Shown here one piece after another: positions 28,614-56,581 of a stretch of DNA of 64,000 bases. The DNA lies in assembly GCA_964586515.1 (NCBI GenBank), contig CAZPGJ010000001.1:394560-458559 (forward strand), read 5' to 3'. How positions within the stretch are numbered: the first letter of the stretch is position 1; each line of letters begins with the position of its first letter. The notes beneath the pieces were generated by a model that made no database searches, was not told the origin of the DNA, and worked only from the letters and a program-made list of their open reading frames with translations. Origin of the DNA: an uncultured Dehalococcoidales bacterium. Lineage in GTDB: Bacteria; Chloroflexota; Dehalococcoidia; GIF9; AB-539-J10. A program made the translations under genes and the position numbers.

Positions 28614-28741
28614 CACAAGAGGAAATGGTATTGACAAATGGTGTCATATATGATACCATAGTATCGCCCTGTGTGAAATAAGTTAGTAGCAGGGAGAAGA
28701 CCAAGAAAGGAGGCAGAGTATGTTGAGGAGGTTTATGTCCT

Positions 28742-28966
28742 ATGGCGCGTGGCAAAAAATCCCTGGAGGTAATTCGACGAAATCCTAGAAATGTGGCTTT
28801 GCGCGACTTTGAAGCACTAATAAAACGGTACGGATATATCGAGGAAGGCGCAAAGCATCCCAAGGCTATCATAGGAACGCACACGATGCCTTACAAAAGA
28901 GAAAGTCCAGTTAGATCCTGCTACGTAAAAGAGTTGTTAGAAATTATTGAAGAACAAGAGGCATAG
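28742..28966 (+). CDS. HicA-like toxin
   Basis: 74 aa; RNVALRDFEALIKRYGYIEEG..HPKAIIGTH pattern of YcfA/HicA fold; followed by HicB-like gene. Confidence 0.5.
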   Translation: MARGKKSLEVIRRNPRNVALRDFEALIKRYGYIEEGAKHPKAIIGTHTMPYKRESPVRSCYVKELLEIIEEQEA

Positions 28967-29001
28967 CTGGCTGGAGATTACGATTAAGATGGAGATTAAG
29001 G

Positions 29002-29433
29002 ATGGTAATTAAAGGTAATATAGAGAAAGAGCTAGAATACTATGCGAAGTTGCCTTATACCGTTATAGTTGAGCAATGGGATGACGGTGAAGGCCCTTAT
29101 TGGGTTGCCAGGATTGCAGAGCTCCCACATTGTCTAATACACGCAGATACACCTGAGGAAGTCGTGAAAGAGATTCAGGAAGTCAAAATGGATTGGATAA
29201 AGTCCAATCTGGAAAGAGGGCTGCGTATTCCTGAGCCGAGACTGCGCAAATATAGTGGTCAAATCAGACTCAGAATTTCGCCTTCACTTCATAGACTACT
29301 TGCCTATAGGGCTGAAACGGAAGGAATGAGCTTAAATCAATATATGGCTACGGCACTGGCAACGTCAGTTGGTATAACTAAAGAGCCCCCTCACTCGAGA
29401 AAGGCAAGAAAAAACACCCTGACAAAGGTGTAA
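29002..29433 (+). CDS. HicB-family antitoxin with C-terminal RHH-like DNA-binding tail
   Basis: 143 aa; YTVIVEQWDDGEGPYWVARIAELPHCLIHADTPEEVVKEIQE (RNase H-like HicB fold) + SLHRLLAYRAETEGMSLNQYMATALA. Confidence 0.6.
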   Translation: MVIKGNIEKELEYYAKLPYTVIVEQWDDGEGPYWVARIAELPHCLIHADTPEEVVKEIQEVKMDWIKSNLERGLRIPEPRLRKYSGQIRLRISPSLHRLLAYRAETEGMSLNQYMATALATSVGITKEPPHSRKARKNTLTKV

Positions 29434-29435
29434 CA

Positions 29436-29481
29436 AATTCCCGGGACACCATCCTTCACAAGGTGAAGGATCAGGCCTACC
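29436..29481 (+). repeat. cassette-boundary repeat, copy 12 (truncated long form)
   Basis: aaattcccgggacaccatccttcacaaggtgaaggatcaggcctac. Confidence 0.6.
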
Positions 29482-29483
29482 TG

Positions 29484-30986
29484 TCAGCTTTCCTTTGTCA
29501 GGCTGAGTCGTCTCCGGTCTATTTGGCCCGACCCCGTCCTGGGCAGGCTGTCAACAAACTTGATTTGTTTGGGCACTTTATAGTCGGATAAGCTCTGGCG
29601 GCAAAAATCGCGTATTTCGTCCACCGTAGCGCTTTGTCCTTCCTTAAGCACTATGAAAGCTGTGGGTATTTGCCCTTTGTAATCATCAAGGACACCGACA
29701 CAGGCTGTTTCGGCTACCGCAGGGTGCCTCAGGAGGACTTCTTCAACTGCCGCGGGCAGAATCTTAACTCCCCCCGAAGGCACTATGATAGATGATGTCT
29801 TTTCTATGAACTCCAGGTAGCCGTCCTCATCCAACTTGACCAGGTCGCCAGTATGAAACCAACCATCTTTGAGGACCTGGGCCGTGAGTTCAGGCGATTT
29901 GTAATATTCCTTCATCATCCAGGGGGCCCTGGCCACGGCTTCCCCTATGCTGCCCCGGGGTACTTCCTTGCCGTTTTTGTCCAGCACTCTGAGCTCAGCC
30001 AGGGGTTTCCCTGCCGTACCCAATTTGCGGTCACGAATAGCACCTATAGTGACGATTATCAACTCCGAGAGCCCATATATTTCGCACGCAGTTAAGCCAA
30101 ACTTTTTCTCGAGCATCTCCATGAAAAGGGCTGAGGACTTTGCCCCGGCACAAAGCACCCGACTTAAAGAACTAAGGTCATAGCCCTTAATCGTCTCTTC
30201 GTCTATCATAGCCAGACCATTAAAGCTGGCCGGGACGCCTATAAGCATGGTTGCTTTTTGCCGCTCTACGGTATCCAGGACACTCTTGGAGCTGAAATGA
30301 GGGAGAATTGCTATGGTGGCTCCCCTCTTAACGGGCATGAGAACAACCAACCCAAATCCCAGAAGGTAGTTGAAAGGGAGCAGACCCAAAACAACATCGT
30401 CTCTCTCCAGTTCGAATTTTTCCACCACTATGGGCAAAATTGACATGAACGAAGCGTGAGTATGCACTATGCCCTTGTTCTTCCCCAGCACACCCAGGGT
30501 GCAAAAAATGATGGCATCATCCTCGCCCTTTATATCGACAGACGGTGACGCAGGGGAACTGCCGGCCACCATCCTGTTGTAAGGGTCTGTACCAACTTCA
30601 AGGACGTGTTTCAGCAGGGGGATATTGGGCAAAATTGAAGACAGCATGGGAGAGAATCTTTGTTCGGTAATCAGGACTTTGGAATCGGTTTCACGGAGCA
30701 GAGGCTCAAGTTCGGGCGCCTTAGCTCCGGAATCGAGCAGCACGCCAACGGCTCCAGCTTTAAGCACTCCAAAACAATTGATGACCCATTCAGGGTTACG
30801 AGACATTAGAATGGCTACGTGGTCGCCCTTCTTTGTCCCCAGGCTGATAAGGGCATTGGCTATCTTGTTAGAGGTTTCATCCAATTCGCAATAGCTAACT
30901 CTGCGAGAGCCGAGCACGATGGCCGTTTGCTGTGGCACCTCGCTGGCGGTTCTTTCTAGCATCTGCTTGAGATTCACGAGATTCAT
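29484..30986 (-). CDS. AMP-dependent synthetase/ligase (acyl-CoA synthetase family)
   Basis: 500 aa; A-domain motifs TLGVLGKNKG (TSGTTG-like), YGLSE, GWFHTGD, PRTGSGQIDRR. Confidence 0.8.
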   Translation of the reverse strand: MNLVNLKQMLERTASEVPQQTAIVLGSRRVSYCELDETSNKIANALISLGTKKGDHVAILMSRNPEWVINCFGVLKAGAVGVLLDSGAKAPELEPLLRETDSKVLITEQRFSPMLSSILPNIPLLKHVLEVGTDPYNRMVAGSSPASPSVDIKGEDDAIIFCTLGVLGKNKGIVHTHASFMSILPIVVEKFELERDDVVLGLLPFNYLLGFGLVVLMPVKRGATIAILPHFSSKSVLDTVERQKATMLIGVPASFNGLAMIDEETIKGYDLSSLSRVLCAGAKSSALFMEMLEKKFGLTACEIYGLSELIIVTIGAIRDRKLGTAGKPLAELRVLDKNGKEVPRGSIGEAVARAPWMMKEYYKSPELTAQVLKDGWFHTGDLVKLDEDGYLEFIEKTSSIIVPSGGVKILPAAVEEVLLRHPAVAETACVGVLDDYKGQIPTAFIVLKEGQSATVDEIRDFCRQSLSDYKVPKQIKFVDSLPRTGSGQIDRRRLSLTKES

Positions 30987-31052
30987 TGTCTCCTCCAGGA
31001 CTCGACGAATTTAAAGTAGGATTATGGGCTACTTTCTTGTTTCCTGTCAACG

Positions 31053-31116
31053 GAATTCCGAGACACCATCCTTCACCTTGTGAAGGACAAATCAGGTATT
31101 ATGTCCCCAGAATACC
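31053..31116 (+). repeat. cassette-boundary repeat, copy 13 (variant A, near-consensus)
   Basis: ggaattccgagacaccatccttcaccttgtgaaggacaaatcaggtattatgtccccagaatacc. Confidence 0.75.
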
Positions 31117-31458
31117 CTACTTGAGTCCCAGGGCGTCTCGGAGGTTGCCTTCAATTCTTTTCATATCTGCCGGGGGCATTATTCCAAGCTTCTTGGCTAT
31201 CATGCCCTGCTTTATCGTTCTTACAATTCCTGTGGCAACGGAGGGGAAAAGCAGCCCAGCCTCCTGCCAATCGCTGATAAGGTGGTCGCCCACCAATATC
31301 CGGTCAGTCCTGCTGGTGATTGCCGCAATTATAGCTTCTTGACGGCTTTGATGGTAAGTGTCTGAGCTTACTATGACTGCCGGACGCCGCCTCTCTCCAG
31401 TTTCATCGGAGAAGATAAACCTGACAAGGACTACATCTCCACGTTTATACCTGGTCAT
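31117..31458 (-). CDS. MazF/PemK-family endoribonuclease toxin
   Basis: From MTRYKRGDVVLVRFIFSDETGERRRPAVIV...; PemK fold motifs. Confidence 0.7.
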   Translation of the reverse strand: MTRYKRGDVVLVRFIFSDETGERRRPAVIVSSDTYHQSRQEAIIAAITSRTDRILVGDHLISDWQEAGLLFPSVATGIVRTIKQGMIAKKLGIMPPADMKRIEGNLRDALGLK

Positions 31459-35146: not shown

Positions 35147-35209
35147 CATTCCAGGGCGCCGTACTAATTAAGCTTGCTGCGAATTAGGTATTATTTTCCC
35201 AGAGTACCA
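35147..35209 (+). repeat. cassette-boundary repeat, copy 14 (highly degenerate)
   Basis: cattccagggcgccgtactaattaagcttgctgcgaattaggtattattttcccagagtacc retains only the arms. Confidence 0.45.
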
Positions 35210-35256
35210 GAGGATATGTTAAGATGGGGTGATTTCAGTGACATCCTGCTCAAGGA

Positions 35257-41139: not shown

Positions 41140-42183
41140 GTGCCGCGTTCACTCACGAGGCTCTTAACATCTATGGAAGCAGGATACGTTGCGCTATACC
41201 ACTCCGGCGAACTGGAGCGTCGTGCGCGGGCGCTTGAGGCCCGATTAGCCTCCTGCGACATCTGCCCCCGGGAGTGTAGAGTCAATAGATTACAAAACGA
41301 ACGCGGCTATTGCCATTCCGGGCGTCTCCCTATAGTCTCGGCGGTCTGCGCTCATCATGGCGAGGAGCCGGCTCTTTCCGGGGCCAGAGGGTCGGGGACG
41401 GTCTTCTTCGGCAACTGCAATATGAGATGCGTTTACTGCCAGAACTACCAGATAAGCCAGGACTGGAAAAAGCAAAAATCGAAGGAAATGGACTGCCACA
41501 CCCTGGCGGAAAGGATGCTCTACCTTCAGGATGGGTTGGGCTGCCACAATATCAACTTTGTTTCGCCGTCCCATTTTGTTCCCCAGCTCCTGCGGGCGGT
41601 CGTGGAAGCGGTGCCCATGGGGCTGCGGGTGCCTCTGGTCTACAACACCGGCGGCTATGATTCCGTCGCTTCTCTCGAAGAGCTGGACGGTGTCATAAGT
41701 ATCTACCTGCCCGATTTGAGATATGCCTCCGACAGGTGGGCCAGGAAATTCTCGCATGCCCCGCATTATGTAACGCGGGCCCGCCAGGCAATTAAGGAGA
41801 TGTATCGCCAGGTTGGAGACCTGGTGGTAGATGAGTCCGGCCTGGCACAAAAAGGACTGATAGTGCGGCATCTCATTCTGCCCAACGGTCTGGCCGGCAG
41901 CGAGGAATCGCTGGCCTGGCTTATCCGGGAGCTTTCTCCCGTGGTGACGGTCAGCATAATGTCTCAATACAAGCCGGTGCACCGGGCACCGCGAATACCG
42001 CTGCTTTCCCGGAAGATCACCGCTGATGAGCATGAAGCGGTCCTCCGGCTGCTAGCCGACCTGGGAATAGAGAACGGCTGGGTGCAGGAAATGGGGGCGG
42101 CGGAAGAGTATCTCCCTGATTTTGAACGAGAAGGCCACCCTTTCTCCCCGTCGAATTCCCGGGACACCATCCTTCACTTGTGA
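41140..42183 (+). CDS. radical SAM enzyme (PflX-like, COG1313-type)
   Basis: 347 aa; N-terminal CDICPRECRVNR..GYCHSG plus radical-SAM CNMRCVYCQN cluster. Confidence 0.65.
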   Translation: MPRSLTRLLTSMEAGYVALYHSGELERRARALEARLASCDICPRECRVNRLQNERGYCHSGRLPIVSAVCAHHGEEPALSGARGSGTVFFGNCNMRCVYCQNYQISQDWKKQKSKEMDCHTLAERMLYLQDGLGCHNINFVSPSHFVPQLLRAVVEAVPMGLRVPLVYNTGGYDSVASLEELDGVISIYLPDLRYASDRWARKFSHAPHYVTRARQAIKEMYRQVGDLVVDESGLAQKGLIVRHLILPNGLAGSEESLAWLIRELSPVVTVSIMSQYKPVHRAPRIPLLSRKITADEHEAVLRLLADLGIENGWVQEMGAAEEYLPDFEREGHPFSPSNSRDTILHL

Positions 42184-42228
42184 AGGGTCAGGCCTGCCAC
42201 AAATTAGGTATTATGTCTCCAGAATAAA
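42162..42228 (+). repeat. cassette-boundary repeat, copy 16 (long form, overlaps 3' end of radical SAM gene)
   Basis: gaattcccgggacaccatccttcacttgtgaagggtcaggcctgccacaaattaggtattatgtctccagaataaacc. Confidence 0.65.
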
Positions 42229-44012: not shown

Positions 44013-44117
44013 TGCCAGTGCGCAAAAATAAAAAGAGAGGCATTACCTCGGGACCAACCCCTTTGGATGGCCTCTCATCGTGATTATGCCACGAAGTTAA
44101 CATAAACTACATTTTTG

Positions 44118-44250
44118 GCCGGTATTTTTAACAGGAGCAGTAACCTCCCGCGTCATTGCGAGCCCCGACTTGTCGGGGCGTGGCAATCCCCAGGATTGCG
44201 GAGCTGTTTTTTGAAGCGTAAGCGAGCCCATCGCGCCTGCCTAAACCTTT
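44118..44250 (+). repeat. TTTTTAACAGG element interrupted by mini-MITE (44152..44191)
   Basis: ggtatttttaacaggagca|gtaacctcccgcgtcattgcgagccccgacttgtcggggcgtggcaatcccc|aggattgcggagctgttttttgaagcgtaagcgagcccatcgcgcctgcctaaacctttt. Confidence 0.55.
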
Positions 44251-45179: not shown

Positions 45180-45202
45180 GAAAATGCATCGCCCACTGCT
45201 TT

Positions 45203-45275
45203 GCCAGTATTTTTAACAGGAGCATCTGCTCGAAGCCTGCGGACATCGTGCCCGTCTAAACCTTTTGACGACTTG
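45203..45275 (+). repeat. TTTTTAACAGGAGCA boundary element
   Basis: ccagtatttttaacaggagcatctgctcgaagcctgcggacatcgtgcccgtctaaaccttttgacg. Confidence 0.55.
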
Positions 45276-45355
45276 TGTAATGTTAAGCTGATCTTGACAT
45301 CTCCGTCGTATTGCGTAATATTGGACGTCATGATGAAACACTGGAGCGCCCGTAG

Positions 45356-45646: not shown

Positions 45647-45693
45647 TCTCTGTCTTGTAGCCTTCTTAGCCATCGTTTTGATTGCATCGTTTT

Positions 45694-45770
45694 CCCGGTA
45701 TTTTTAACAGGAGCATCTGCTTGAAGCCTGAGGACGTCGCACCTGTCTAAACTTTTTGGCGGAATGTGCA
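45694..45770 (+). repeat. TTTTTAACAGGAGCA boundary element
   Basis: cccggtatttttaacaggagcatctgcttgaagcctgaggacgtcgcacctgtctaaactttttggcg. Confidence 0.55.
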
Positions 45771-45976: not shown

Positions 45977-46231
45977 ATGAAAGAGCAGAATAAGGACAGA
46001 AAAAGACTAAAATTAGTCCCATTTGGGGATGCATATATACAAAGAAGTAGGCGTCTCGCTATCCCTGAGATCTTGTTGCAAAACGTTGAGTTGCGGGAGG
46101 GAGATGCAGTCAAGTTATTTCTTGATGTTGGGGATATTACTGGTGAGAAGGCGATTGTGGTAATGAAATCAAAAAATCCTGACAAAATTAAGGCCAAAGG
46201 CCGCAGGCAAAAAAGAGGAGAGACTACTTGA
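45977..46231 (+). CDS. AbrB/SpoVT-like small DNA-binding protein, possible controller of downstream R-M gene
   Basis: 84 aa; RRLAIPEILLQNVELREGDAVKLFLDVGDITGEKAIVV resembles AbrB-N swapped hairpin; stop overlaps TTG start of 46228 gene; AT-rich. Confidence 0.4.
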   Translation: MKEQNKDRKRLKLVPFGDAYIQRSRRLAIPEILLQNVELREGDAVKLFLDVGDITGEKAIVVMKSKNPDKIKAKGRRQKRGETT

Positions 46232-48924
46232 TTTATCCTTTGGGTCTTTATTCAGGTGACGCCAGCAATAAGTTTTGTTCTCTCAAGAATCTTCGCAACG
46301 AGAGTGATGTAGAGCAGTTCTTCACTATCCGCTTGCTCAATCATCTGGGATATACTGACGATTTCATTGAAACAAAAACCTCACTAAAAGGTGAACTGTT
46401 AGGAAAGGGTACTAGACGTAGGACATATGTTCCTGATTATGTTTGCTATAAAGATAGGCAACATAAGATTCCTCTTCTGGTTGTGGATGCAAAGAGCCCT
46501 CTTGAAAGTGCTGAGGCAGGCGCAAGTGATGCACAAGAATATGCTGCAGTTTTACACCGACGTCTAGATGACCCAAAACCAGAAATCTATTGCATAGGCA
46601 CAAATGGTACTCGCACTATCGTAAAGCACTATGATAGAGAAAAACCAGAGTTTGACCTTACTTTTGAAGAGTTTGTTGATGGGAATCCTAAGTTCGCTGA
46701 CTTTATTTCCGTGCTTTCGAGAGCATCACTATCGGAAGTTAGTTTCCCGGCAGGTGCAATATTTGAGTTCAGGAAACCGGGCCTTGGCGAAGTAAGAGGC
46801 ATCTTCCAAGCCTGCCACAATATTATATGGCGTAAGGAAAAAATGTCCCCCCAAGCCGCCTTCTATGAATTCTGCAAAATTATGTTTATTAAACTTCGAG
46901 AGGATAAGAAGCTAAGAGGAGACCCAGAACTAAGTCAGTTGATTCGTAACGGACGTCCATTGCCGACGGATAGAGTATTGTTTAACCTTCATATGATAGT
47001 ACAAAGTGAGGATGCAGACCCTAATCCGGTTAACTCTATGCTTTTTAAGCGTCTCAGGGAAGAATTAGAACATGAAATACGAATTGGACGTAAGAAGCGT
47101 ATTTTTGAGCCTGATGAAGAGATAAGACTGAAAGCTACTACAGTTAAAGAAGTCGTGAGGCACCTTGAACACCACGACCTTTATGGTATAGATGAAGATT
47201 TAAATGGTCGATTATTTGAAACTTTCTTAAGTTCCACCATGAGAGGGCCTGAACTAGGTCAATTTTTTACACCGCGTTCTGTAGTTGAATTTATGAGCGA
47301 CCTTGTTGATTTACAAGTGTCACTTCAATATGTCGATTCGGTAATTGACCTATGCTGTGGCACTGGAGGCTTCCTTATAGAGGCGATGGCAAAAATGGCA
47401 GAAAAGGTAAACAGACCCCCGCTGGCAACTGTGCTTGGAAGTGGTGAAAAGGAAAAGATACTACAAAAGATAAGAGATGAGCAGCTACTAGGAATAGATG
47501 CAGGAAAAGACCCCCCTATAGCTAGGATTGCTAGAATCAACATGTATTTACATGGGGATGGAGGTAGCCACATCTACTTTGCAGACGCTCTAGATAAGGC
47601 GACTGCAATAGAGGAAGGTGTGGAACCTGAATTAAGAACAGAACGAGAGGAACTTCGTCAAATTCTTGTTACTGGCGGACATAAGTTTGATGTCGCCCTA
47701 ACTAATCCTCCATTTGCTATGCGTTATAAACGTTCTGAGGCTGATGAACGAAGCATACTTGAACAATACAAACTAGGGGAATATATTGCTAAGAAGGGTT
47801 CTCGAAAACAAAGAGCTTCTTTAAAGTCAAATATTATGTTCTTGGAACGGTATTGTGACTTGTTAAAGCCTGGAGGCAGACTTTGTACTATAATTGATGA
47901 AAGTGTGCTAAATACGGATACAGATAAAGAAGCCAGATACTTTCTGCTGCATAACTTCCTAGTGAGAGCCGTGATTAGTTTGCCCCGATGGGCATTTTTT
48001 GAAGCAGGCTCAAATGTAAAGACCTCTATTCTATTCTTGACCAAAAAACATGAAACGTCTGAAGAGCAACCTCACACGTTCTATGCACGCTGTGAGAACA
48101 TAGGTTATGACTATCAGAAACCAGACCCTACAAAAAATGAACTACCTATGATTCTAACCGCATACAGAGCATATCAGAAAGACGGGAAAATACTTGAGAA
48201 GCAAAAAACTCATTGGAGCGACAAGACTCGGCTCTTCTCCACGAAGTTAACATCAGACATAAGACGAATCGACTTTGAATACCTTGACCCTCGGCATGAA
48301 GTAATGCTAGAGAAATTGCAGGAAATAGCCACCACCCGAAACTATGAGATAGCTAACCTTGATGATTTATGTGAGGTGTTCCGGGGTAAGACTGCAGAAC
48401 AATATGTTACTGATGGCATCCCTATAATTAAACTACGAAACGTAACGAACGAGGGTATAAATTGGGAAGATATAGATTTTGTGCTTAGAGACTTTTTTGA
48501 TGATAATCCTGATTGCCATCTAAAGCCTTTAGATATTTTGCTTACCTCTACAGGAGTGGGAACTATCGGTAGGGTCGATATGTTGGATAGGGACATACCC
48601 TGTATGACAGATGGGCATGTTACTGTGTTAAGGGTAAAGGAACAAACTAAGGTTCTGCCCCGATATATCCTTTATTACCTCCGGTCAACTTTAGGACAAA
48701 TGCAAATGGAGAAATATACTGTAGGCAGTACTGGCCAAACTGAGCTCAATAGAGATGATGTTAAGGCAATAAAGGTTGTTTATCCTGAGTCAGCCGATGA
48801 CCAATCAAAATTAGCTGATGCTGCACACAGTATAGAGGCTGTCGCAGTCAGAGCAAGAAATGAATATAGGAATAACTTAGCAATGGCTAGACTGAAATTT
48901 GCTGAATCGTTGGGTTTGTCATAA
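46228..48924 (+). CDS. single-chain Type IIG/IIL-like restriction-modification enzyme (nuclease + gamma-class N6-MTase + TRD)
   Basis: 898 aa; N-terminal PD-(D/E)xK (VPDYVCY...VVDAKS), MTase motif I LCCGTGGFL and motif IV LTNPPF, C-terminal HsdS-like TRD; AGAGGAG SD before TTG start. Confidence 0.65.
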   Translation: MIYPLGLYSGDASNKFCSLKNLRNESDVEQFFTIRLLNHLGYTDDFIETKTSLKGELLGKGTRRRTYVPDYVCYKDRQHKIPLLVVDAKSPLESAEAGASDAQEYAAVLHRRLDDPKPEIYCIGTNGTRTIVKHYDREKPEFDLTFEEFVDGNPKFADFISVLSRASLSEVSFPAGAIFEFRKPGLGEVRGIFQACHNIIWRKEKMSPQAAFYEFCKIMFIKLREDKKLRGDPELSQLIRNGRPLPTDRVLFNLHMIVQSEDADPNPVNSMLFKRLREELEHEIRIGRKKRIFEPDEEIRLKATTVKEVVRHLEHHDLYGIDEDLNGRLFETFLSSTMRGPELGQFFTPRSVVEFMSDLVDLQVSLQYVDSVIDLCCGTGGFLIEAMAKMAEKVNRPPLATVLGSGEKEKILQKIRDEQLLGIDAGKDPPIARIARINMYLHGDGGSHIYFADALDKATAIEEGVEPELRTEREELRQILVTGGHKFDVALTNPPFAMRYKRSEADERSILEQYKLGEYIAKKGSRKQRASLKSNIMFLERYCDLLKPGGRLCTIIDESVLNTDTDKEARYFLLHNFLVRAVISLPRWAFFEAGSNVKTSILFLTKKHETSEEQPHTFYARCENIGYDYQKPDPTKNELPMILTAYRAYQKDGKILEKQKTHWSDKTRLFSTKLTSDIRRIDFEYLDPRHEVMLEKLQEIATTRNYEIANLDDLCEVFRGKTAEQYVTDGIPIIKLRNVTNEGINWEDIDFVLRDFFDDNPDCHLKPLDILLTSTGVGTIGRVDMLDRDIPCMTDGHVTVLRVKEQTKVLPRYILYYLRSTLGQMQMEKYTVGSTGQTELNRDDVKAIKVVYPESADDQSKLADAAHSIEAVAVRARNEYRNNLAMARLKFAESLGLS

Positions 48925-48978: not shown

Positions 48979-49049
48979 AATTCCGGAATTCCAGGGGCAC
49001 CATACCAATCAGGCCTGCTACAAATCAGGTATTATGCCCCCAGAATACC
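48979..49049 (+). repeat. cassette-boundary repeat, copy 17 (variant B, duplicated GAATTCC 5' arm)
   Basis: gaattccggaattccaggggcaccataccaatcaggcctgctacaaatcaggtattatgcccccagaatacc. Confidence 0.7.
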
Positions 49050-49193
49050 ACGAACTCATCTTCGGTCGAGGGTGGTGATGGCACCCTTGACTTGACTTTG
49101 GTCTGAGCCTTTGATACCTTAGACTTTGTCATGGTTGCTAGGGGGTGCACTACTAGACTCACTTAAATCTCGTACATACCCTCAGGGCGAATC

Positions 49194-50015
49194 TTGCAAG
49201 TTCTGGGGGTGACGGAAGGAAATATGACTCGGCAATTGCATATCACCATCGAAGGAAGACTAGGCCAAATTCCCCTTAATACACTAGCGACTATGGCACG
49301 AAACTCCTGTGATATTTTGGAGGAGTTGGATAATGTGACCTCTGCGAAGCCCGGTGGGACTATGGAATGGTTTGTCTCGGGCATCTCCACTGAGGCAAGT
49401 TTGACGGTCACCATCGAAGCAAAGCCAAAACTAAAGGATGTAGATTATACAGGGAGGGTAGCAGAATTATTTGTTGATGGATTGGCGCATATTGAGAAGG
49501 AGCATACCACTCCGCCGTATTTTTCTGACTATGGTCTCCGTAAAACTCATAACATTGCCAAAACCCTTCGTAAGAATGGAGCAGAAGCTATCAGAGTGGA
49601 AGACATTGAACGCAAAGCCAGTGGCCTTATAAAGGCAGATGTGGCGGACCCTCTGAAAAAACTCATTAGTATTCGGTATCAAGAGATAGGTTCAGTAGAG
49701 GGTACACTTGAAATGATTTCTATTCACGGCTATCCACGTACAACTGTTTATCATTCTATTACACATCGGTCTGTTAGCTGCAAATTTGCCCCCAGATTGT
49801 TAGAGATAGTTAAAGAAGGGCTGGGAAATCGTGTGATTGTACACGGCATAGTTTATTTCAACTATGTGCATGAACCGATAAGAGTGGATGCCGAGAGGAT
49901 AGAAATAATGCCTCAAGAGGAGGAACTTCCTACGGCAAAAGACTTACGTGGTATGGTTCCTGATTTCACGGGGGATATGAAGACTGAAGACTATATTCGG
50001 AGTCTTCGTGAATGA
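49194..50015 (+). CDS. hypothetical protein (no recognisable domain), upstream partner of PIN gene
   Basis: 273 aa (probable start MTRQLHITIEG at 49224); stop overlaps start of PIN gene (ATGA). Confidence 0.45.
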   Translation: MQVLGVTEGNMTRQLHITIEGRLGQIPLNTLATMARNSCDILEELDNVTSAKPGGTMEWFVSGISTEASLTVTIEAKPKLKDVDYTGRVAELFVDGLAHIEKEHTTPPYFSDYGLRKTHNIAKTLRKNGAEAIRVEDIERKASGLIKADVADPLKKLISIRYQEIGSVEGTLEMISIHGYPRTTVYHSITHRSVSCKFAPRLLEIVKEGLGNRVIVHGIVYFNYVHEPIRVDAERIEIMPQEEELPTAKDLRGMVPDFTGDMKTEDYIRSLRE

Positions 50016-50494
50016 CTAACACTATTTATAAACAACCGTATTTGGAGAGTAGCGTTTTTATCGCCCTCATTAAAGGTGAGGTCATAGACGGGGTAGATAG
50101 AGCCGATATTGCTCAACACATTCTTGACGATGCTGCAAGAGGAAGGTGGCCTATTTTCACATCCACATTTACCTTTGCAGAAGTAATCAAAGATCGCAAA
50201 AGACCCTTGTTAACACTGGAGGAAGAAAGGAGAATTGGTGATTATTTCAAACATAAATACATTAAGCCAGTGCTATTAGATAGGGAAGTTGGAGAATCAG
50301 CGAGACGATTAGCTAGAATTTATACTCTACGCCCCGCTGATGCTGTTCACTTGGCAAGTGCTATCCAAGCAAAAGCAGATGAATTGTTGACTTGGGATAG
50401 TGGTAATTTCCCAATTGGTCAAACTATAGAGGGAGTCACAATTAAATTACCATATTGGTTTGGTCAAACTAGGATACCATTGCAACCAAGCTAA
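50012..50494 (+). CDS. PIN-domain nuclease
   Basis: 160 aa; acidic residues in PIN positions: YLESSVFIA, TSTFTFAEV, PADAVHLASA, LLTWDSG. Confidence 0.6.
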   Translation: MTNTIYKQPYLESSVFIALIKGEVIDGVDRADIAQHILDDAARGRWPIFTSTFTFAEVIKDRKRPLLTLEEERRIGDYFKHKYIKPVLLDREVGESARRLARIYTLRPADAVHLASAIQAKADELLTWDSGNFPIGQTIEGVTIKLPYWFGQTRIPLQPS

Positions 50495-50568
50495 TCAAAA
50501 GAACCCCCAATGATAGAATTAGGAAGAGAATAATGTCACTCGCCCTAGCTTCATGTATAGCCCTTTTG

Positions 50569-50632
50569 TAATTCCCGGGACACCATACCAATCAGGCCTA
50601 CTACAAATTAAGTATTATTTTCCCCAAAATAC
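50569..50632 (+). repeat. cassette-boundary repeat, copy 18 (variant B)
   Basis: aattcccgggacaccataccaatcaggcctactacaaattaagtattattttccccaaaatac. Confidence 0.65.
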
Positions 50633-50680
50633 ACGTGAATGACACGCCATTCGCTTTAGCATTAGGTTCAGCGGGTGAAT

Positions 50681-51355
50681 TTAAGCATTCAAGAGGCTAT
50701 TACCGGTGAGCAACAGCACAGCGTTGTCGATTAGCTTTGGTACGGTTGTATTCCAACCATCATCGAGGTATTTCTCCCACATATCTCCCGGACTTTCCAT
50801 CACTTCTAGGGCAAGATGCATAATTTCCATGTACTTTACGCCCGATTCTGCTTCGTACCCATAGAAATATTTGAGTGTATTCTTCGAGTCCATAGGAATA
50901 CACAATTTAGGAAACAAAAAGTGTAGTAGTTTGGAATTAGACACCAGTCTTCCGCCTGTCTTCATCACGTGTAGATTCTCGTAAACGTCGGCTATGCAAT
51001 CAAGTTTCTGTTCGATGCTCCCGTGTTGCCTTTCTACTGCTTCGAGGTTAGACAACTGCGATATACAGACGAAAATACTCTGTTTGAAATCATCGAAGTA
51101 CTTAAGTCTGGCTCCCCGGCTGTTCATGTCCCAGGCCACAAGAGTAGCGTAGACTATCTCCAAATTGTGGTCGTCAGAAATAAAAGATGTGACGGTCCCT
51201 GCGCCAAATCTCAGTACGAGTGTTCGCTTATAGAAGTAAAGGTCTGGGCCAAAACGGCCGTCACGTCCGATTCGGTATAGCCGATTTATATCAGATATTC
51301 TATTCTCTATCGTTGTCTTGATGTCATTCATCTTCTGAGTTCTGTTTTTTATCAT
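50681..51355 (-). CDS. hypothetical protein
   Basis: 224 aa; clean ORF bounded by two repeat copies; no motif recognised. Confidence 0.4.
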   Translation of the reverse strand: MIKNRTQKMNDIKTTIENRISDINRLYRIGRDGRFGPDLYFYKRTLVLRFGAGTVTSFISDDHNLEIVYATLVAWDMNSRGARLKYFDDFKQSIFVCISQLSNLEAVERQHGSIEQKLDCIADVYENLHVMKTGGRLVSNSKLLHFLFPKLCIPMDSKNTLKYFYGYEAESGVKYMEIMHLALEVMESPGDMWEKYLDDGWNTTVPKLIDNAVLLLTGNSLLNA

Positions 51356-51519
51356 ATATGTTTATCTCCTCCAATATGAGCTTTGGTTCAGTCTATGATA
51401 TTCATTACACCGGTCTACGCCAGCGCTCGCCACACGTCAGTCTTAGCAGTCTTTACTAAGTCCATTCGTAACCTGCTAGGTATTATAGCAAGGGATAGCT
51501 GTCTGGTTCATCCTCCACA

Positions 51520-51583
51520 CAATTCCAGGGACACCACCCCAGTCAGGCCTGCTACAAATCAGGTATTATTTCCCCAGAATACC
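51520..51583 (+). repeat. cassette-boundary repeat, copy 19 (variant B)
   Basis: aattccagggacaccaccccagtcaggcctgctacaaatcaggtattatttccccagaatacc. Confidence 0.7.
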
Positions 51584-51706
51584 ACGAAATCAAAGGCGCA
51601 GATGGTGAACTTTGGTTAAGAGTCGAACTCGAATAGGCCGATATCCACGCAGGCAGCAAGCGTATCCATTGGGTCATTTCAAACTGTGACGGGGATGCTT
51701 AGCCGG

Positions 51707-51857
51707 CAAAAAAAGATGCCCCGAGTAACCTCACTTCCTTCACCTGCATCGTCCGGCTCAGCCCTCAGCTTATCCTGTGCCGACCACCGCCAGCACCTTT
51801 CAGCCTCCGCCAAGCTCAACTCTTATGCCGGGTCCCTGCTCGGCTACTCGGGACAAC
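51707..51857 (-). ncRNA. candidate ~150-nt structured small RNA (copy A) with own promoter and U-tail
   Basis: Minus strand: TTGACA(51891-51886)-18-TAGTAT(51867-51862); transcript GUCCCGAGUAGCC...CAGGUGAAGGAAGUGAGGUUACUCGGGGCAUCUUUUUUU; 5' CCCGAGUAG pairs with 3' UUACUCGGG; ~80% identical to copy B with conserved ends and variable middle. Confidence 0.35.
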
Positions 51858-51938
51858 CTTAATACTAGCACATATATAGAACAGTTGTCAAGTCCGCATA
51901 TGTACCAGGACGTCAGTAATGTCATGTGTCGGCACAGG

Positions 51939-52388
51939 TCACTTCTGGGTGAACTCCGGATGGTTCCTTTTCAACCATTCCAGGACCGTAGTGCGAAGCT
52001 TCTTTGCCAGAGCAAGCATCTTCTCAACTTCTTGTTCAGAAACCATGCCCACTCTCTCATAATCAGCGATATTGCGTTTCCTGCGAAAGGTATTAAGCTG
52101 GTCAATGGTCCTGGCATCAAGCTGCATGGTGAAAGCTAGCGACTGGATAGTCCAGTAGTGGTGGCCTTCTTGTGCTGCCCTGTAGCCACTGGCAGCCAGC
52201 GCTACCGTCGCTGCCAGCAAGGCAGCACTGTAAGCGGTGGCGAATCGCCTGTCCGCGCTCAATTCATGTAACTGGGCATCCGCCAGGTCACGGTCAGCCG
52301 CCTTCAGTAGCTCGGCAATGTCGCTACTGCTTGTTTTATGGGCTCTTAACCGCCCGCTTTCCAACCAGCTTTGTAAGCTCGTATTCAT
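51939..52388 (-). CDS. HEPN domain protein (second MNT-HEPN pair)
   Basis: 149 aa; paralogue of 25347..25799 (NAAVQTAKAAL / SAALLAATVAL; RNISDYER / RNIADYER). Confidence 0.6.
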   Translation of the reverse strand: MNTSLQSWLESGRLRAHKTSSSDIAELLKAADRDLADAQLHELSADRRFATAYSAALLAATVALAASGYRAAQEGHHYWTIQSLAFTMQLDARTIDQLNTFRRKRNIADYERVGMVSEQEVEKMLALAKKLRTTVLEWLKRNHPEFTQK

Positions 52389-52953
52389 TGCCTATGAGAA
52401 AGATTTTGTCGCCCTCAAGCACTGTATTGAGGAAATGGTGAGCGTCCTTTATTTTCTGTTTGAATTCAGTGATAGGATATACTACCGGGTTGACTTCGCG
52501 CCCCAGTTTTTGTTCCGCCGGGTTGAGAAGCGAAACCACGTCTTCAAAGGAGATTCTCCCAACTATCATCACGTCAATATCGCTTGTTCTCCTTTCATCG
52601 CCGCTGACGATTGAGCCGAATATGAAAGCAACCTTTATCTGCCCGATACAAGGCGCCAGTGCTGAGCGCAGGACGTCTGCCACACCCACAGTTTTGACAA
52701 TTATTCCATGCAGCTCATTAAAAAGAGGGCTCTGCCGGTTTGCCTGATAATATTTCTGTTTTCCCTCCGTAGTCGAAACAAGAATACCGGTCTCCTCCAG
52801 ATGTGCCAGCTCACGGCTCACATTTGTAGAATCTTCCTCCACTAAGGCGGTAAGTTGGCGGACAAAATAGCGCTGATCTGGATGTGTGAATAACCATCCC
52901 AGCACCTTTGCCCTGAGCTTTGACCCTACAAGTGTTCCTAATATTCCGTTCAT
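52336..52953 (-). CDS. wHTH + minimal nucleotidyltransferase (second copy)
   Basis: 205 aa; GSIVSGDERRTSDIDVMIV; paralogue of 24779..25378. Confidence 0.7.
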   Translation of the reverse strand: MNGILGTLVGSKLRAKVLGWLFTHPDQRYFVRQLTALVEEDSTNVSRELAHLEETGILVSTTEGKQKYYQANRQSPLFNELHGIIVKTVGVADVLRSALAPCIGQIKVAFIFGSIVSGDERRTSDIDVMIVGRISFEDVVSLLNPAEQKLGREVNPVVYPITEFKQKIKDAHHFLNTVLEGDKIFLIGNEYELTKLVGKRAVKSP

Positions 52954-52965
52954 CCTATACGAAAT

Positions 52966-53023
52966 TGCAGTTTTATTTACTGCTATTGCAGTATTTTATA
53001 CTGCAAACCCTTCCGAAGTCAAT
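52966..53023. promoter_or_regulatory. promoter/operator of MNT-HEPN pair 2
   Basis: Minus strand TTGACT-17-ATAAAAT; palindrome TGCAGTATTTTATACTGCA (52988..53006) overlaps -10; second half-site TGCAGTTTTATTTACTGCTATTGCA. Confidence 0.4.
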
Positions 53024-53106
53024 AGTAGTTTCCAGATATTTGCTCCAAATATTGAGTATGTGCTCATTAGAATGAGCGATGACAAAGAAGCCAAGACTTG
53101 GTAGCT

Positions 53107-53152
53107 GGAATTCCGGGGATACCATCCTTCACAAGGTGAAGGATCAGGTCGG
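53107..53152 (+). repeat. cassette-boundary repeat, copy 20 (truncated after hairpin)
   Basis: ggaattccggggataccatccttcacaaggtgaaggatcaggtcgg. Confidence 0.6.
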
Positions 53153-53254
53153 TGAATTTTGGTTAAGAGTCGAACCTGAATAAGCCGATATCCACGCAGG
53201 TATTAGGCCTATTTATCGGGCATTTGAAACTGCGAGAAGGATGCTCAGCTGGCA

Positions 53255-53405
53255 AAAAATAAAACGCCCCGAGTAACCTCACTTCCTTCACCTGCCATCG
53301 TCGAGCCTCATCTTCAGCCTACCTTGCGGCGATTACCATCCCCGCCTTTCAGCTTCCACCAAGCCCGACTCTTATGCCGGGTCCCCGCTTGGCTACTCGG
53401 GACAT
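53255..53405 (-). ncRNA. candidate ~150-nt structured small RNA (copy B)
   Basis: Minus strand TTGACA(53440-53435)-18-TAACAT(53416-53411); same conserved 5' GUCCCGAGUAGCC and 3' CAGGUGAAGGAAGUGAGGUUACUCGGGGCGUUUUAUUUUUU as copy A. Confidence 0.35.
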
Positions 53406-53611
53406 CTTCTATGTTAGCACATCCATAAAACATCTGTCAAGTTTTGTGCGCGGGGGTCGGAGCAACCGGCTTATGGATAACGAGGCCGGCTTTCGTGCAA
53501 CCCCGCCATATTGAGCGATGAGTCCCTTTCATGACTTTTCCCTTGGCGCGATATACAATCTAACGAAGAATTCTTGTGCCAACCCGTTACTTGAGTACGT
53601 AGGAGATAGGA

Positions 53612-54619
53612 TTGCTCTCAGCCATACCTGTACTGTTTGGCTCGCTAATTTCAGTCTTTATTGCCTCGCTTCTTTTTGTTAATGCGCTCGAATGGTTGGG
53701 CAATAAGTTGAACCTGGGTAGCTCATTTGTTGGGGCTGTTTTATCACCAATATTTACCTCCCTGCCCGAGCTAATTGTCATTCTAATAGCTATCTTTTCC
53801 AATATCGGTGAGGCCGGGCAAGAGGTCGGAATAGGGACGATTTTCGGAGAGCCTTTTATGGCATCCAGTTTGTCTTATAGCCTGGTGGGGATTGCCGTTG
53901 TCGTTGGATACCTTGGGAAGAAAAGAACCAGCACTACGCTGGTTATCGATAAAACTCTCTCTATTCCTTATATCTTCGTAATAGTTCTGTTTCCGTTAGT
54001 CCTGATACCGGGGTTCGTACATATAATTTGGGTGAAGTACTTATTCGGTGCAGGGTTTCTGGCGATTTTCATCTTCTATATGCGGTTAATGTACCGGAGA
54101 AGAATGACCGAGGAAATCGGAGAGGTTGAAGATCTTACGTTTGCTAAATTGGCCCCCAAAACACGCTCGCACCCAATGATAGTGTTAGCATTTCAACTTT
54201 CTGTGTCGGTTGTACTACTGTATTTCGGTTCGCGATATCTGGTCTCTTCGGTGGTAGCGATTTCTCAGGGGATTAATGTCAGCCCTTTAGGTTTAGCGAT
54301 GATTATTATTCCGGCGGCAACGGCTATCCCTGAGACTATAACTGCGCTGATCTGGGGATACAGGGGAAAGGATACACTGAGCATTGCCTCTCTGGTTGGT
54401 GAAAAGACTTTATATTCTACTTTCTACCCTGCAATAGGGCTATTTCTTACTTCCTGGGCGCTGGATATTCATGCTATATTCAGCGTCATTGTCACCACCC
54501 TAATTTCATTGATTCTGCTTTGCTACGTCAGGAGGCAACGATTACCCTGGTACAGCCTATTCTTCGGCCTCGCCTTTTTTATAGGTTACGGCGTACTAAT
54601 ATTCCTGTTTAGAATCTAA
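53612..54619 (+). CDS. CaCA-family cation/Ca2+ antiporter (YrbG-like)
   Basis: 335 aa; two alpha-repeat signatures GAVLSPIFTSLPELIVIL and IPAATAIPETITALIWG. Confidence 0.7.
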   Translation: MLSAIPVLFGSLISVFIASLLFVNALEWLGNKLNLGSSFVGAVLSPIFTSLPELIVILIAIFSNIGEAGQEVGIGTIFGEPFMASSLSYSLVGIAVVVGYLGKKRTSTTLVIDKTLSIPYIFVIVLFPLVLIPGFVHIIWVKYLFGAGFLAIFIFYMRLMYRRRMTEEIGEVEDLTFAKLAPKTRSHPMIVLAFQLSVSVVLLYFGSRYLVSSVVAISQGINVSPLGLAMIIIPAATAIPETITALIWGYRGKDTLSIASLVGEKTLYSTFYPAIGLFLTSWALDIHAIFSVIVTTLISLILLCYVRRQRLPWYSLFFGLAFFIGYGVLIFLFRI

Positions 54620-54752
54620 TATGATTCTTAATAAGACATCTTTCCCCGTTGACCAGACTTGGTAATCCTGAAACACTCCGGCTCACGGCTTTACAAAATA
54701 GTGTATTGTGATCGCCAGCGAGTAGCGCACGGAATAGCGTTTGTGCAGCCTG

Positions 54753-54817
54753 GAATTCCAGGGACACCTCCTTCACCTTGTGAAGGACAAGTCAGGCATT
54801 ATGTCCTCAGAATACAG
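54753..54817 (+). repeat. cassette-boundary repeat, copy 21 (variant A)
   Basis: ggaattccagggacacctccttcaccttgtgaaggacaagtcaggcattatgtcctcagaatacagg. Confidence 0.7.
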
Positions 54818-54899
54818 GTGGGTATTTACAACATCGAATGAGGTTACGTGTGCTTGAAGATTCGTTAATACAGGCGTACACTGGATAATCGAGTATAGA

Positions 54900-55364
54900 G
54901 TGGAGGTGTCTCTAATGAAGGCTTTAATAGTATATGACTCAGTTTATGGAAATACGGAGAAAATCGCCAGGGCTATTGCTGAAGCTATTACCCCGTCCGG
55001 TGAGGTCAAGGTACTGCAGGCAGGCGAGGCGAATCCCTCGGAACTGGCATCCAATGACCTTCTCATTTTAGGTTCTCCGACCCATGGGGGCAGGCCGACG
55101 CCGGCGATTCAAGACCTCCTTACCAAAGTCCCCAAGCTTCAAGGTATCAACGTAGCTGCATTCGACACCAGAACCCAGACGAAACTCGTCGGGGTGTTTG
55201 GATATGCTGCTGGACGCATCGCCCGTAATCTGAAAGGAAAGGGCGGTACTCTCATAGCGTCTCCGGTGGGTTTCTTTGTTACAGGTAGCAAAGGTCCGCT
55301 GAAAGAAGGCGAACTAGAGCGGGCTGCAGGTTGGGCCAAGGGAATTTTAGAGAGCAAGAAGTAA
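54900..55364 (+). CDS. flavodoxin-like fold protein (copy 2)
   Basis: 154 aa, ~90% identical to 21438..21908; differs by 3-aa indel (ERS). Confidence 0.7.
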   Translation: MEVSLMKALIVYDSVYGNTEKIARAIAEAITPSGEVKVLQAGEANPSELASNDLLILGSPTHGGRPTPAIQDLLTKVPKLQGINVAAFDTRTQTKLVGVFGYAAGRIARNLKGKGGTLIASPVGFFVTGSKGPLKEGELERAAGWAKGILESKK

Positions 55365-55404
55365 TTTTGTAATGCCCTTCCTCATTTCAACTATACAATT
55401 ACTG

Positions 55405-55467
55405 AATTCCAGGAACACCGTCCTTCACAAGGTGAAGGACAAGTCAGGTATTATGTCCCCAGAATAC
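55405..55467 (+). repeat. cassette-boundary repeat, copy 22 (inverted-loop hairpin)
   Basis: gaattccaggaacaccgtccttcacaaggtgaaggacaagtcaggtattatgtccccagaatac. Confidence 0.7.
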
Positions 55468-55599
55468 TTATGTAGTGAGCCAGAACAAGGACTTGACGGA
55501 ATTGTGGCATATGTTATAATAATGGTGAAAATAGTGGGAAATGGTGCGAAATGGGTTCAACCCACATGACAATTGGATTAATGTGTAAGGGGAAATAAG

Positions 55600-55899
55600 A
55601 TGGCAACTATAATAAAAGATCAAAATCTAGTAAGAGTGGGCAAGCCCGTCACACCGGATTCCAGGAAGCGAGTGGTTTTGCCCAAAACAGTAGTGAAAGA
55701 AGGTATTACCTATTTTATATATCATAATAGCGTTGGGCAGATAGTACTAGATCCACAGGCAAGTATACCTGCTTCTGAGTTATGGGTATTTGAAAATAAA
55801 GACGTTTTAGCCTCGATTGATAAAGGCATACGTGAGTCACTAAATGGGAAAACAATAGACCGTGGCTCATTTGCAAAACACATAAATGACGCACCGTGA
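55600..55899 (+). CDS. antitoxin-like protein (AbrB/MazE-type fold?)
   Basis: 99 aa; LVRVGKPVTPDSRKRVVLPKTVVKEG; overlaps start of downstream RelE/ParE-like gene. Confidence 0.4.
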   Translation: MATIIKDQNLVRVGKPVTPDSRKRVVLPKTVVKEGITYFIYHNSVGQIVLDPQASIPASELWVFENKDVLASIDKGIRESLNGKTIDRGSFAKHINDAP

Positions 55900-56212
55900 G
55901 CTACGTTTTACGCTTGAAGCTGACAAGCAACTAACAATCATTGAGAATGACCCCTCCCTTAAGGATGTACAAAAACAAGTAAGGAAAACTCTAAGATATT
56001 TAGAAACAAATCTCCGCTCAAAATCCTTACAAACCCACGAGTATCAATCACTAACCAGGCGTTATGGCATTAAGGTTTTTGAGGCCTATGTTCAACAGAA
56101 TACGCCGGGGGCTTATAGAGTGTTTTGGCATTACGGGCCGGATGAAATAAGCAAAGACGGAAAGCGAATACCCATTATCACCATCATTGCTATAACGCCT
56201 CACCCCGATTGA
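55886..56212 (+). CDS. RelE/ParE-superfamily toxin
   Basis: 108 aa; ...AYRVFWHYGPDE...IPIITIIAITPH C-terminal pattern. Confidence 0.5.
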   Translation: MTHRELRFTLEADKQLTIIENDPSLKDVQKQVRKTLRYLETNLRSKSLQTHEYQSLTRRYGIKVFEAYVQQNTPGAYRVFWHYGPDEISKDGKRIPIITIIAITPHPD

Positions 56213-56456
56213 CTAATTCCCCACCCTGCCCCAGCAGCTTTCTTATCTATTTCACTCCGCTGCTTTGCCGTTGGCTTATTAGCCCTGGCCTTACTACCTT
56301 TCCGACCACTGCGGCCACTTGCCAAACCTTAATTGTTTTACTACCATATAATCAACAGCGCCAGGGTGAGCAGCCCTGGCCCGACAGTCTCTCTTGTGAA
56401 GGGAGGCTGTTTCTTTTTGAACTGATTCCGCCGCAATATTATGTCTCTTGACCACA

Positions 56457-56500
56457 TAATTCCGAGGACGCCATGCCGGTCAGGCTTACTGCGGATCACG
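56457..56500 (+). repeat. cassette-boundary repeat, copy 23 (truncated variant B) - last copy before argG
   Basis: cataattccgaggacgccatgccggtcaggcttactgcggatcacg; 5' flank cttgaccacataattcc shared with copy 3. Confidence 0.55.
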
Positions 56501-56581
56501 TGTTAAGCTCCTAGGAAATGACCGCAAGCAAATTCCCAGATTCTTCGGTCACTCCGCTCCCTCAGAATGACAAAGAGTGAA

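Follow-up and report, generated by a model that had tools for sequence, protein, structure and literature searches.

A probable, previously undescribed family of structured small RNAs on gene-less mobile cassettes of Dehalococcoidia arrays

The window analysed here is a 64,000-nucleotide (nt) stretch of DNA from an uncultured Dehalococcoidales bacterium (contig CAZPGJ010000001.1), and all coordinates given below are window positions. It contains two copies, A and B, of a conserved unit whose candidate product, a small RNA (sRNA), is read on the minus strand. A sequence-only reading of this DNA had described the unit as ~300 bp long, free of conserved open reading frames (ORFs) on either strand, equipped with a minus-strand promoter, a closing 5′/3′ stem and a U-run, and placed on both sides of a gene pair of MNT and HEPN type. 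The parts of the two copies, with the elements directly adjoining them, are the following.

51862-51891, minus strand: promoter of copy A, with −35 TTGACA (51891-51886), an 18-nt spacer with the TG of an extended −10, and −10 TAGTAT (51867-51862)
51708-51854, minus strand: candidate sRNA of copy A, ~147 nt, with closing stem P1 (51854-51842 with 51730-51718), helices P2-P5 and the U-run (51714-51708)
51594-51707, minus strand: 3′ module of copy A, with an 11-bp hairpin and a complement of RNA positions ~30-46 (nhmmer E 1.9e-36)
51902-51920, no strand assigned: degenerate remnant of the upstream palindrome, ATTACTGACGTCCTGGTAC on the minus strand, immediately after the HEPN stop codon
51520-51587, plus strand: attC-like boundary repeat of central variant 2, after copy A in the direction of the RNA
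53411-53440, minus strand: promoter of copy B, with −35 TTGACA (53440-53435), an 18-nt spacer with TG, and −10 TAACAT (53416-53411)
53254-53403, minus strand: candidate sRNA of copy B, ~150 nt, with P1 (53403-53391 with 53278-53266) and the U-run region (53265-53254)
53150-53253, minus strand: 3′ module of copy B, its end fused to a truncated boundary repeat (nhmmer E 4.3e-30)
53107-53149, plus strand: truncated boundary repeat of central variant 1 abutting copy B, with the hairpin TCCTTCAC-AAG-GTGAAGGA

Minus-strand alignment with MAFFT of 51594-51900 and 53150-53445 extended over the whole length of both, with a mean column identity of 82% and identical blocks reaching 30 nt, for example GCAGGTGAAGGAAGTGAGGTTACTCGGGGC. 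Word searches allowing up to three mismatches, nhmmer with its filters off (--max) and a covariance model all found exactly these two copies in the window, the last scoring copy B at 182.4 bits and copy A at 170.6 bits. The two-copy observation is real and well beyond chance. Both promoters lie where the sequence-only reading had placed them. The closing stem P1 comprises 13 bp in copy A, GUCCCGAGUAGCC (51854-51842) pairing with GGUUACUCGGGGC (51730-51718), and the U-run follows after a gap of 4-6 nt, copy A having AUCUUUUUUU there and copy B GUUUUAUUUUUU. The ~300-bp unit stood as a genuine repeat and not as a single piece, being composed of a ~185-bp core with promoter and RNA and a separable ~115-bp 3′ module. 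The minimum free energy (MFE) of the core is −65.3 kcal/mol for copy A (z −5.68) and −66.8 kcal/mol for copy B (z −6.38), values equalled by none of 200 shuffles, and plus-strand folding of the two copies gave z of only −1.0 and −2.6. The MFE structures of the window copies are the same as the family consensus fold described below and have an ensemble frequency of 21-24%.

Relatives of the unit were retrieved by exact-word scans with two words, both of which lie within or beside P1. A 20-mer from the conserved purine segment, scanned against species-representative genomes, returned 21 loci, 20 of them in 17 metagenome-assembled genomes (MAGs) of Dehalococcoidia/Chloroflexota and one a chance match, and a 24-mer from the RNA 5′ end returned at least 120 loci from JGI metagenomes. 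The related loci from these scans, more than 140, all belong to Dehalococcoidia/Chloroflexota MAGs or to sediment metagenomes. Across all retrieved loci nhmmer gave 169 hits, of which 149 were full-length and 132 unique, and a covariance-model search of the same loci found no divergent extra members. Plasmid and phage collections returned no match by blastn, and a word scan of viral contigs returned none. Comparison with Rfam 15 by cmscan, the check that the sequence-only reading had proposed, found no known family: there was no match at the gathering score over the whole window and none at E ≤ 10 over 51400-53600, the unmatched families including 6S, Y RNA, SRP, tmRNA, riboswitches, ribozymes and HEARO/omega-RNA. 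The unit represents a previously undescribed candidate family of structured sRNA, without sequence or model relation to described families.

Read in the direction of the RNA, the family layout consists of a boundary repeat, a short spacer (GCTAATTCCGAGAACC or CTGGCGAGAACC), the palindrome GGTACTA-N6-TAGTACC, the promoter, the RNA and the U-run, beyond which ~50 nt are conserved and a variable distal part leads to the next boundary repeat. Both promoter hexamers are conserved across the family. Of 129 members, 128 have TTGACA as the −35 and 128 have a spacer of 17-18 nt, and the −10 follows the pattern TAnnAT, varying only at positions 3 and 4 (TAATAT, TAGTAT, TAACAT, TAGCAT). TG lies one base upstream of the −10, and P1 starts 7 nt downstream of it. 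This pattern of conservation is the one that a working sigma-70 promoter would show. The U-run is likewise conserved, and is kept where the downstream sequence is unrelated (L047, L048, L054, L059, L094, L114 and L119).

Some 10 nt separate the palindrome from the −35, and the repeat that bounds the cassette upstream lies beyond it (for example L019:6723-6783). The two halves of the palindrome vary symmetrically in some members, as in GTACTG...CAGTAC of L032 and L045. A dimeric regulator may use it as an operator, or it may form a hairpin. In copy B the palindrome is absent, and an unrelated upstream sequence, shared with L005:5137, stands in its place.

The fold and its covariation were analysed on 130 distinct RNA sequences with a mean column identity of 83%. 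RNAalifold returned one unbranched rod of 38 pairs, with P1 of 13+2 bp, P2 of 3 bp, P3 of 10 bp, a palindromic P4 (AGCU/AGCU) and P5 of 6-7 bp closed by a 4-nt loop. An alternative P2, CCUG/CAGG, was rejected as inconsistent with the window copies, the RNAalifold P2 fitting the variation better. Standard pairs occupy 97.4% of the 4921 cells, compared with 25-41% when the 3′ partners are slid by 1-3 columns. Changes on both sides occur in 11 pairs, and the observed covariation score was reached by none of 500 column shuffles. The sequence-only reading had named compensation within the closing stem of homologues as a test that could refute the stem, and the outcome favours it: 99.8% of the P1 cells are paired across the 130 sequences, 9-10 of its 15 pairs vary on one side and yet stay paired, and one pair runs from GC in most sequences through GU (L046:9804) or AC (L043:9332) to AU (L096:624). 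G-U pairs make up 24% of the paired cells, and the opposite strand would pair only 74.6%; the covariance model scores the sense strand at 120-194 bits and the reverse strand at 13-18 bits. The structure therefore belongs to the minus-strand RNA. Between the helices lie purine-rich internal loops, AGGG/GAAGGAA, GAA/GAA on one side of the AGCU element and GAAAG/AAGGUA on the other, whose sequences are as conserved as the helices. By reading of the sequences, the motif N-UGAA(A/G)GG recurs 4-5 times in these loops. Mimicry of an anti-Shine-Dalgarno sequence by AAGGAAGUGA was dropped on inspection only, as the pairing contains a conserved A.C mismatch in its middle.

Neither strand of the unit carries a conserved ORF. 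The most persistent frame, 23 sense codons (VKEVRLLGAF..) across the U-run, is found in 37 of 61 full cassettes, and its variable columns are spread 8/9/8 over the three codon positions, without codon periodicity. Length changes that are not multiples of three occur in 16 of the 61 sequences, and the same frame in the window copies would yield 14 and 42 codons. An antisense frame of 34 codons also shows no periodicity. These two small ORFs and a plus-strand mini-ORF (MVNFG*) were rejected for lack of periodicity, frame-breaking indels and loss of the start codon in several members. The unit is predicted to be non-coding. With a correctly placed sigma-70-type promoter, a strand-specific covarying fold and no conserved frame, it is a candidate for an independent sRNA gene.

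The ~115-nt 3′ module is present in about half of the units, including both window copies. Its 11-bp hairpin has four compensated pairs, and a 16-nt stretch of it complements RNA positions ~30-46, which form the 5′ strand of P3, with 94% pairing in 61 sequences. In the other units the module is shortened by fusion to the right half of the repeat, replaced by a different pyrimidine-rich module, or replaced by unique sequence with a classical terminator. Full-length copy A has an MFE structure that uses the pairing between core and 3′ module. Among 61 sequences, this long-range pairing beats the core fold in only 3, copy A included, and is at a median disadvantage of 13.6 kcal/mol, and RNAalifold on full-length sequences retains the core fold; the 3′ module is therefore not treated as a switch. 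A local 5′ hairpin, GUCCC-N13-GGGAC, was considered as an anti-terminator and rejected, since its variants GAGAC, GAAAC and AAGAAC are uncompensated. A tRNA- or tmRNA-like 3′ end, suspected from GGTTCGACTC...CACCA in the 3′ module, was rejected as well, ARAGORN finding neither a tRNA nor a tmRNA.

The alternative pyrimidine-rich module (CCTCCGCCTTCACTCCGC...CTTTCAATTCCACTATGGTG) is found in L033, L037:11792, L051 and L068, and upstream of the unit in L059, L063, L065 and L077. It includes CCTTCAC, the complement of GTGAAGG of the RNA. Units that abut unique sequence had been considered as marks of array edges; they are fusions with a ~100-amino-acid (aa) ORF inside the cassette, and the arrays continue on both sides.

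At the majority of loci the unit stands alone as a gene-less cassette, with attC-like boundary repeats of 64-72 nt on both sides. The repeats and the gene pair of the window are located as follows.

19547-31117, 35147-35213, 42153-42228 and 48985-56523, plus strand: boundary repeats, 22 copies
51939-52953, minus strand: MNT and HEPN-like gene pair (MNT 52953-52336, HEPN-like 52388-51939), in one cassette with copy A

The 22 repeats are imperfect palindromes of 64-72 nt, all on the plus strand and mostly 3-100 nt past the stops of plus-strand ORFs, and they fold best as single strands on the minus strand. Their centres are of two variants, 1 being the hairpin TCCTTCAC-N3-GTGAAGGA and 2 being CCATACCAATCAGGCCTGCTAC. 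In all 196 of 196 cases the RNA unit is opposite in orientation to the repeats, and 68% of the adjacent genes run the same way as the repeats. For the downstream gene, the orientation matches that of the unit in 31%, the background being 32%, and a boundary repeat always lies between unit and gene. Two or three copies occur within 10 kb at 24 loci, always as direct repeats, with 0.2-8.6 kb of unrelated cassettes in between. The 512 neighbouring proteins fall into 227 clusters, the largest of which, alpha/beta-hydrolase-like, is found beside 18 of 146 units; MNT/HEPN-type neighbours are near only 8-12 of the 146. Because it recurs within arrays and beside unrelated genes, the unit is a self-contained, mobile or duplicating gene-less cassette, and it is the most recurrent cassette of these arrays. 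Some units are fused with genes in one cassette, among them copy A with the HEPN and MNT genes and copy B with a Na/Ca-exchanger gene behind the truncated repeat. The flanking of the MNT-HEPN pair, noted in the sequence-only reading, is incidental and arises only because that gene pair shares a cassette with copy A.

Taken together, the most probable explanation, to which we give a probability of roughly 60%, is that each unit is an RNA gene, its product a non-coding RNA of ~145 nt, and that a small, gene-less mobile cassette carries it. Transcription would start from the strong sigma-70-type extended −10 promoter at the G of GUCCCG on the minus strand, and the transcript would fold into a long rod, with P1 as the closing stem followed by P2-P5 and purine-rich internal loops between them. 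The likely 3′ end of the RNA is the U-run 4-6 nt past the 3′ strand of P1. We infer that selection acts on the RNA as such and that it works in trans, because its loops are as conserved as its helices, it has no constant neighbour and the co-orientation of downstream genes equals the background. As a best guess, its most likely mode of action would be to bind or sequester a protein; this mode is favoured because the loops hold 4-5 copies of N-UGAA(A/G)GG, the AGCU element is two-fold symmetric and no neighbour is fixed. Simple base-pairing to mRNA is less likely.

Several points weigh against this explanation. The 5′ and 3′ ends of the RNA are predicted ones, and the argument for protein binding consists of loop conservation and motif repetition; clustering of the 512 neighbours shows no recurrent partner protein. 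The U-run site escapes a simple terminator scan, since the stem, the long-range P1 ending 4-6 nt before the U-run, encloses ~115 nt and not a short loop. The 3′ module is conserved at 86-87% compared with 88% for the RNA in the 61 cassettes that have it, and it has a compensated hairpin of its own; the transcript may therefore be longer in those copies. The covariation statistics are modest (11 pairs, 34 cells) because the retrieval words touch P1 and hide variation there, most changes are transitions among G-U, G-C and A-U, and the sequences are close relatives.

Among the other explanations, the orientation of the unit, always against the repeats and against 68% of the array genes, and its recurrence every few cassettes would suit an antisense promoter or insulator cassette, whose counter-array transcription silences or insulates a neighbour and whose folded RNA and U-run serve as the stop signal. 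A gene-less Vibrio cassette with an antisense promoter does silence the upstream cassette (PMC11014356). A stop signal, however, needs no ~115 nt of conserved helices with invariant purine loops, the most conserved segment of the cassette is the RNA core (88%; promoter 81%, upstream region 62%), and if the U-run terminates, transcription ends short of the neighbouring cassette. We consider insulation an unlikely account of the unit. The sequence-only reading had suggested that the RNA might control the boundary-repeat family or be processed from it. If the RNA acted by base-pairing, its purine segment GGUGAAGGA would bind cassette transcripts through the UCCUUCACC arm of their repeat hairpin. 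RNA and repeat do share the GGUGAAGGA motif. Over 10 nt (AGGTGAAGGA) the RNA is identical to one arm of the variant-1 hairpin, and RNA and repeat have 15 hexamers in common compared with 3.1 ± 2.2 expected (0 of 1000 shuffles), nearly all of them from CACAAGGTGAAGGA; by reading of the sequences, a UUCACC-like box is also present in all three kinds of downstream sequence. The pairing itself did not hold up: the best duplex energies have z of −0.2 to −1.2, with 33-113 of 300 shuffled repeats as good, and about half of the repeats, those of variant 2, have no hairpin, yet the motif is kept in units flanked by them. In addition, the GGU of the motif is paired in P2, and there is a GGUAAACGAAGUAAGG subfamily without a matching change in the repeat. 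Regulation by such pairing is improbable, and the motif sharing possibly stems from common ancestry or from a common binding protein.

Read as a cis-acting leader or attenuator, the unit would use P1 and the U-run as a conditional terminator, and read-through would re-pair the 3′ module with the 5′ segment and so allow downstream expression. The 16-bp complementarity noted above, its use in the full-length MFE structure of copy A and the co-orientation, as it happens, of both downstream genes in the window are in keeping with this. Over the family, however, downstream co-orientation is at background and a boundary repeat intervenes, the long-range pairing is energetically inferior and lost from the full-length consensus, the 3′ module is absent or replaced in half of the members, the 5′ hairpin GUCCC..GGGAC is broken without compensation in several (GAGAC, GAAAC), and no Rfam riboswitch matches. 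We hold attenuation, and with it a riboswitch, to be very unlikely, and the chance is about equally slight that the RNA takes a direct part in cassette movement, guiding, scaffolding or decoying an unlinked recombinase that recognises the repeat, or that it is a cassette-borne, 6S-like rod that binds RNA polymerase. Such a role could be read from the lack of a detected integron integrase and canonical R-boxes for these arrays, from the motifs common to RNA and repeat, from the position of the unit as the most recurrent cassette and, superficially, from a rod with a large central internal loop as in 6S RNA. It would explain the top recurrence, the single orientation beside the repeat and the motif sharing, and would amount to an RNA-dependent, integrase-less cassette system. 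Against it, no recombinase, TnpB/IscB or IS110-type gene recurs beside the unit among the 227 clusters of 512 neighbours, the loop sequences do not co-vary with the type of flanking repeat, neither 6S nor any other Rfam model matches at E ≤ 10, and a multi-copy cassette location is unexpected for 6S. Finally, a purely DNA-level element, such as a recombination site, a foldback resembling a miniature inverted-repeat transposable element or a protein-binding platform, would be consistent with the multi-copy, mobile nature of the unit, its position beside recombination-site-like repeats and the inverted repeats inside it. The share of G-U cells (24%) and the poor pairing of the other strand (74.6%) are unexpected for duplex DNA, however, the conserved near-consensus promoter and the U-run lie exactly at the two ends of the fold, and the unit ends have no terminal inverted repeats. 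We give this last explanation hardly any credence.

The arrays were also compared with integrons. They contain diverse, mostly co-oriented single-gene cassettes between repeats of the same orientation. The repeat ends, (G)AATTCC ... AGAATACC, do not match the canonical attC boxes RYYYAAC/GTTRRRY. No tyrosine-recombinase signature turned up in a regular-expression search of the window ORFs and of those in related loci (~0.9 Mb, with flanks of up to 10 kb), and phmmer with an approximate IntI1 query found no match at E ≤ 10. As the end boxes are off consensus and no integrase was seen, the repeats are called only attC-like. The arrays may still be CALIN-like, because the flanks examined reached at most 10 kb. 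CALIN are clusters of attC sites lacking an integron integrase (Cury et al. 2016, PMC4889954). The Dehalococcoidia arrays resemble them in their same-orientation imperfect-palindrome repeats just after ORFs, in the lack of an integrase nearby and in their diverse cargo, which includes toxin-antitoxin and restriction-modification genes, and they differ in that the repeat ends depart from the boxes that define attC.

A cassette-borne sRNA is known from Xanthomonas, sRNA-Xcc1 (Chen et al. 2011, as cited in bioRxiv 10.1101/2025.06.18.660453). It is oriented against the array and lies on the most widespread Xanthomonas cassette, which it shares with the symE toxin gene (bioRxiv 10.1101/2025.06.18.660453). 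sRNA-Xcc1 and the RNA described here have in common a small RNA within a cassette of a chromosomal array, with its own promoter, antisense to the array and on the most widespread cassette. The two have no sequence or Rfam relationship, and they differ in cargo, the Xanthomonas cassette bearing symE, whereas the Dehalococcoidia RNA is usually alone on a gene-less cassette without a conserved ORF. The hosts also differ, and the Dehalococcoidia arrays have non-canonical repeats and no integrase that was seen. Vibrionaceae superintegrons contain gene-less cassettes that carry a promoter on one strand or the other (PMC11014356), and gene-less promoter-active cassettes occur in the oral metagenome and Treponema (PMC6557892). 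Like the cassette described here they are short, ORF-less, bounded by repeats and promoter-bearing, and some of their promoters are antisense (PMC11014356). However, they have been characterised as promoters, mostly in sense orientation, that drive neighbouring cassettes (PMC11014356; PMC6557892), whereas in the Dehalococcoidia cassette an invariably antisense promoter leads into a 145-nt fold, conserved and covarying, with a U-run after it. An antisense promoter with a conserved fold and a U-run makes the product look like a discrete RNA and not like read-through into a neighbour.

In overall shape, the predicted RNA can be compared with 6S RNA and bacterial Y RNA. All three are rods whose 5′ and 3′ ends meet in a long closing stem, with large conserved internal loops and an apical variable hairpin. 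In contrast to the other two, the new RNA is multi-copy and carried on cassettes, and their Rfam models are unmatched at E ≤ 10. It is shorter than most 6S RNAs, and no rsr or other partner gene was found among the clustered neighbours of the unit. IS110 bridge RNA, TnpB/IscB omega-RNA and retron msr-msd were rejected in the absence of a recurrent neighbouring recombinase, nuclease or reverse transcriptase. A type I or III toxin-antitoxin RNA was rejected as well, there being no conserved small ORF and no tandem repeats, and few neighbours of MNT/HEPN type.

The family gives a poorly studied, mostly uncultured lineage a well-supported structured RNA, backed by promoter, fold and covariation, and it is abundant in sediment metagenomes. 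It suggests that bearing an RNA gene, and not a promoter alone, can be what a gene-less cassette is for. The function of the sRNA cassette probably bears on the expression, stability or shuffling of the Dehalococcoidia cassette arrays. Arrays without a recognisable integron integrase or canonical attC boxes deserve study in their own right.

The MNT-HEPN pair that shares the cassette of copy A encodes a 205-aa MNT protein with Pfam Polbeta/NTP_transf_2 matches and a 149-aa HEPN-like protein without a Pfam match; the latter matches only two short Logan contigs, both from one study, which agrees with an uncultured source. A promoter-like TTGACT-18-TAAAAT lies upstream of the MNT gene (53022-52993, minus strand), and the pair would therefore have its own promoter, independent of sRNA copy B. 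The cassettes of the window carry PIN, MNT/HEPN, flavodoxin, Na/Ca exchanger, hydrolase and restriction-modification genes. A flavodoxin cassette occurs twice, in two different arrays (21325-21952 and 54787-55408), with ORFs of 156 and 154 aa and 88-93% identity. Restriction-modification genes are positioned at the edges of the repeat arrays (17171-19518 and 46228-48924), one set consisting of a DNA methylase and an XcyI-like endonuclease and the other of an 898-aa protein with fused N6-methylase and specificity domains.

The window also contains a second, unrelated family of intergenic repeats.

10413-10502, 12523-12582, 13537-13625, 15805-15952 and 44114-44192, also 17000-17078, 45198-45277 and 45690-45768: second repeat family, GTCATTGCGAGC...GGCAGGCGGGAGCGTGGCAATC, and TTGCCGGTATTTTTAACAGGAGCA...

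The GTCATTGCGAGC/GGCAATC motif adjoins the sRNA cassette in L018, L028, L044, L051 and L068.

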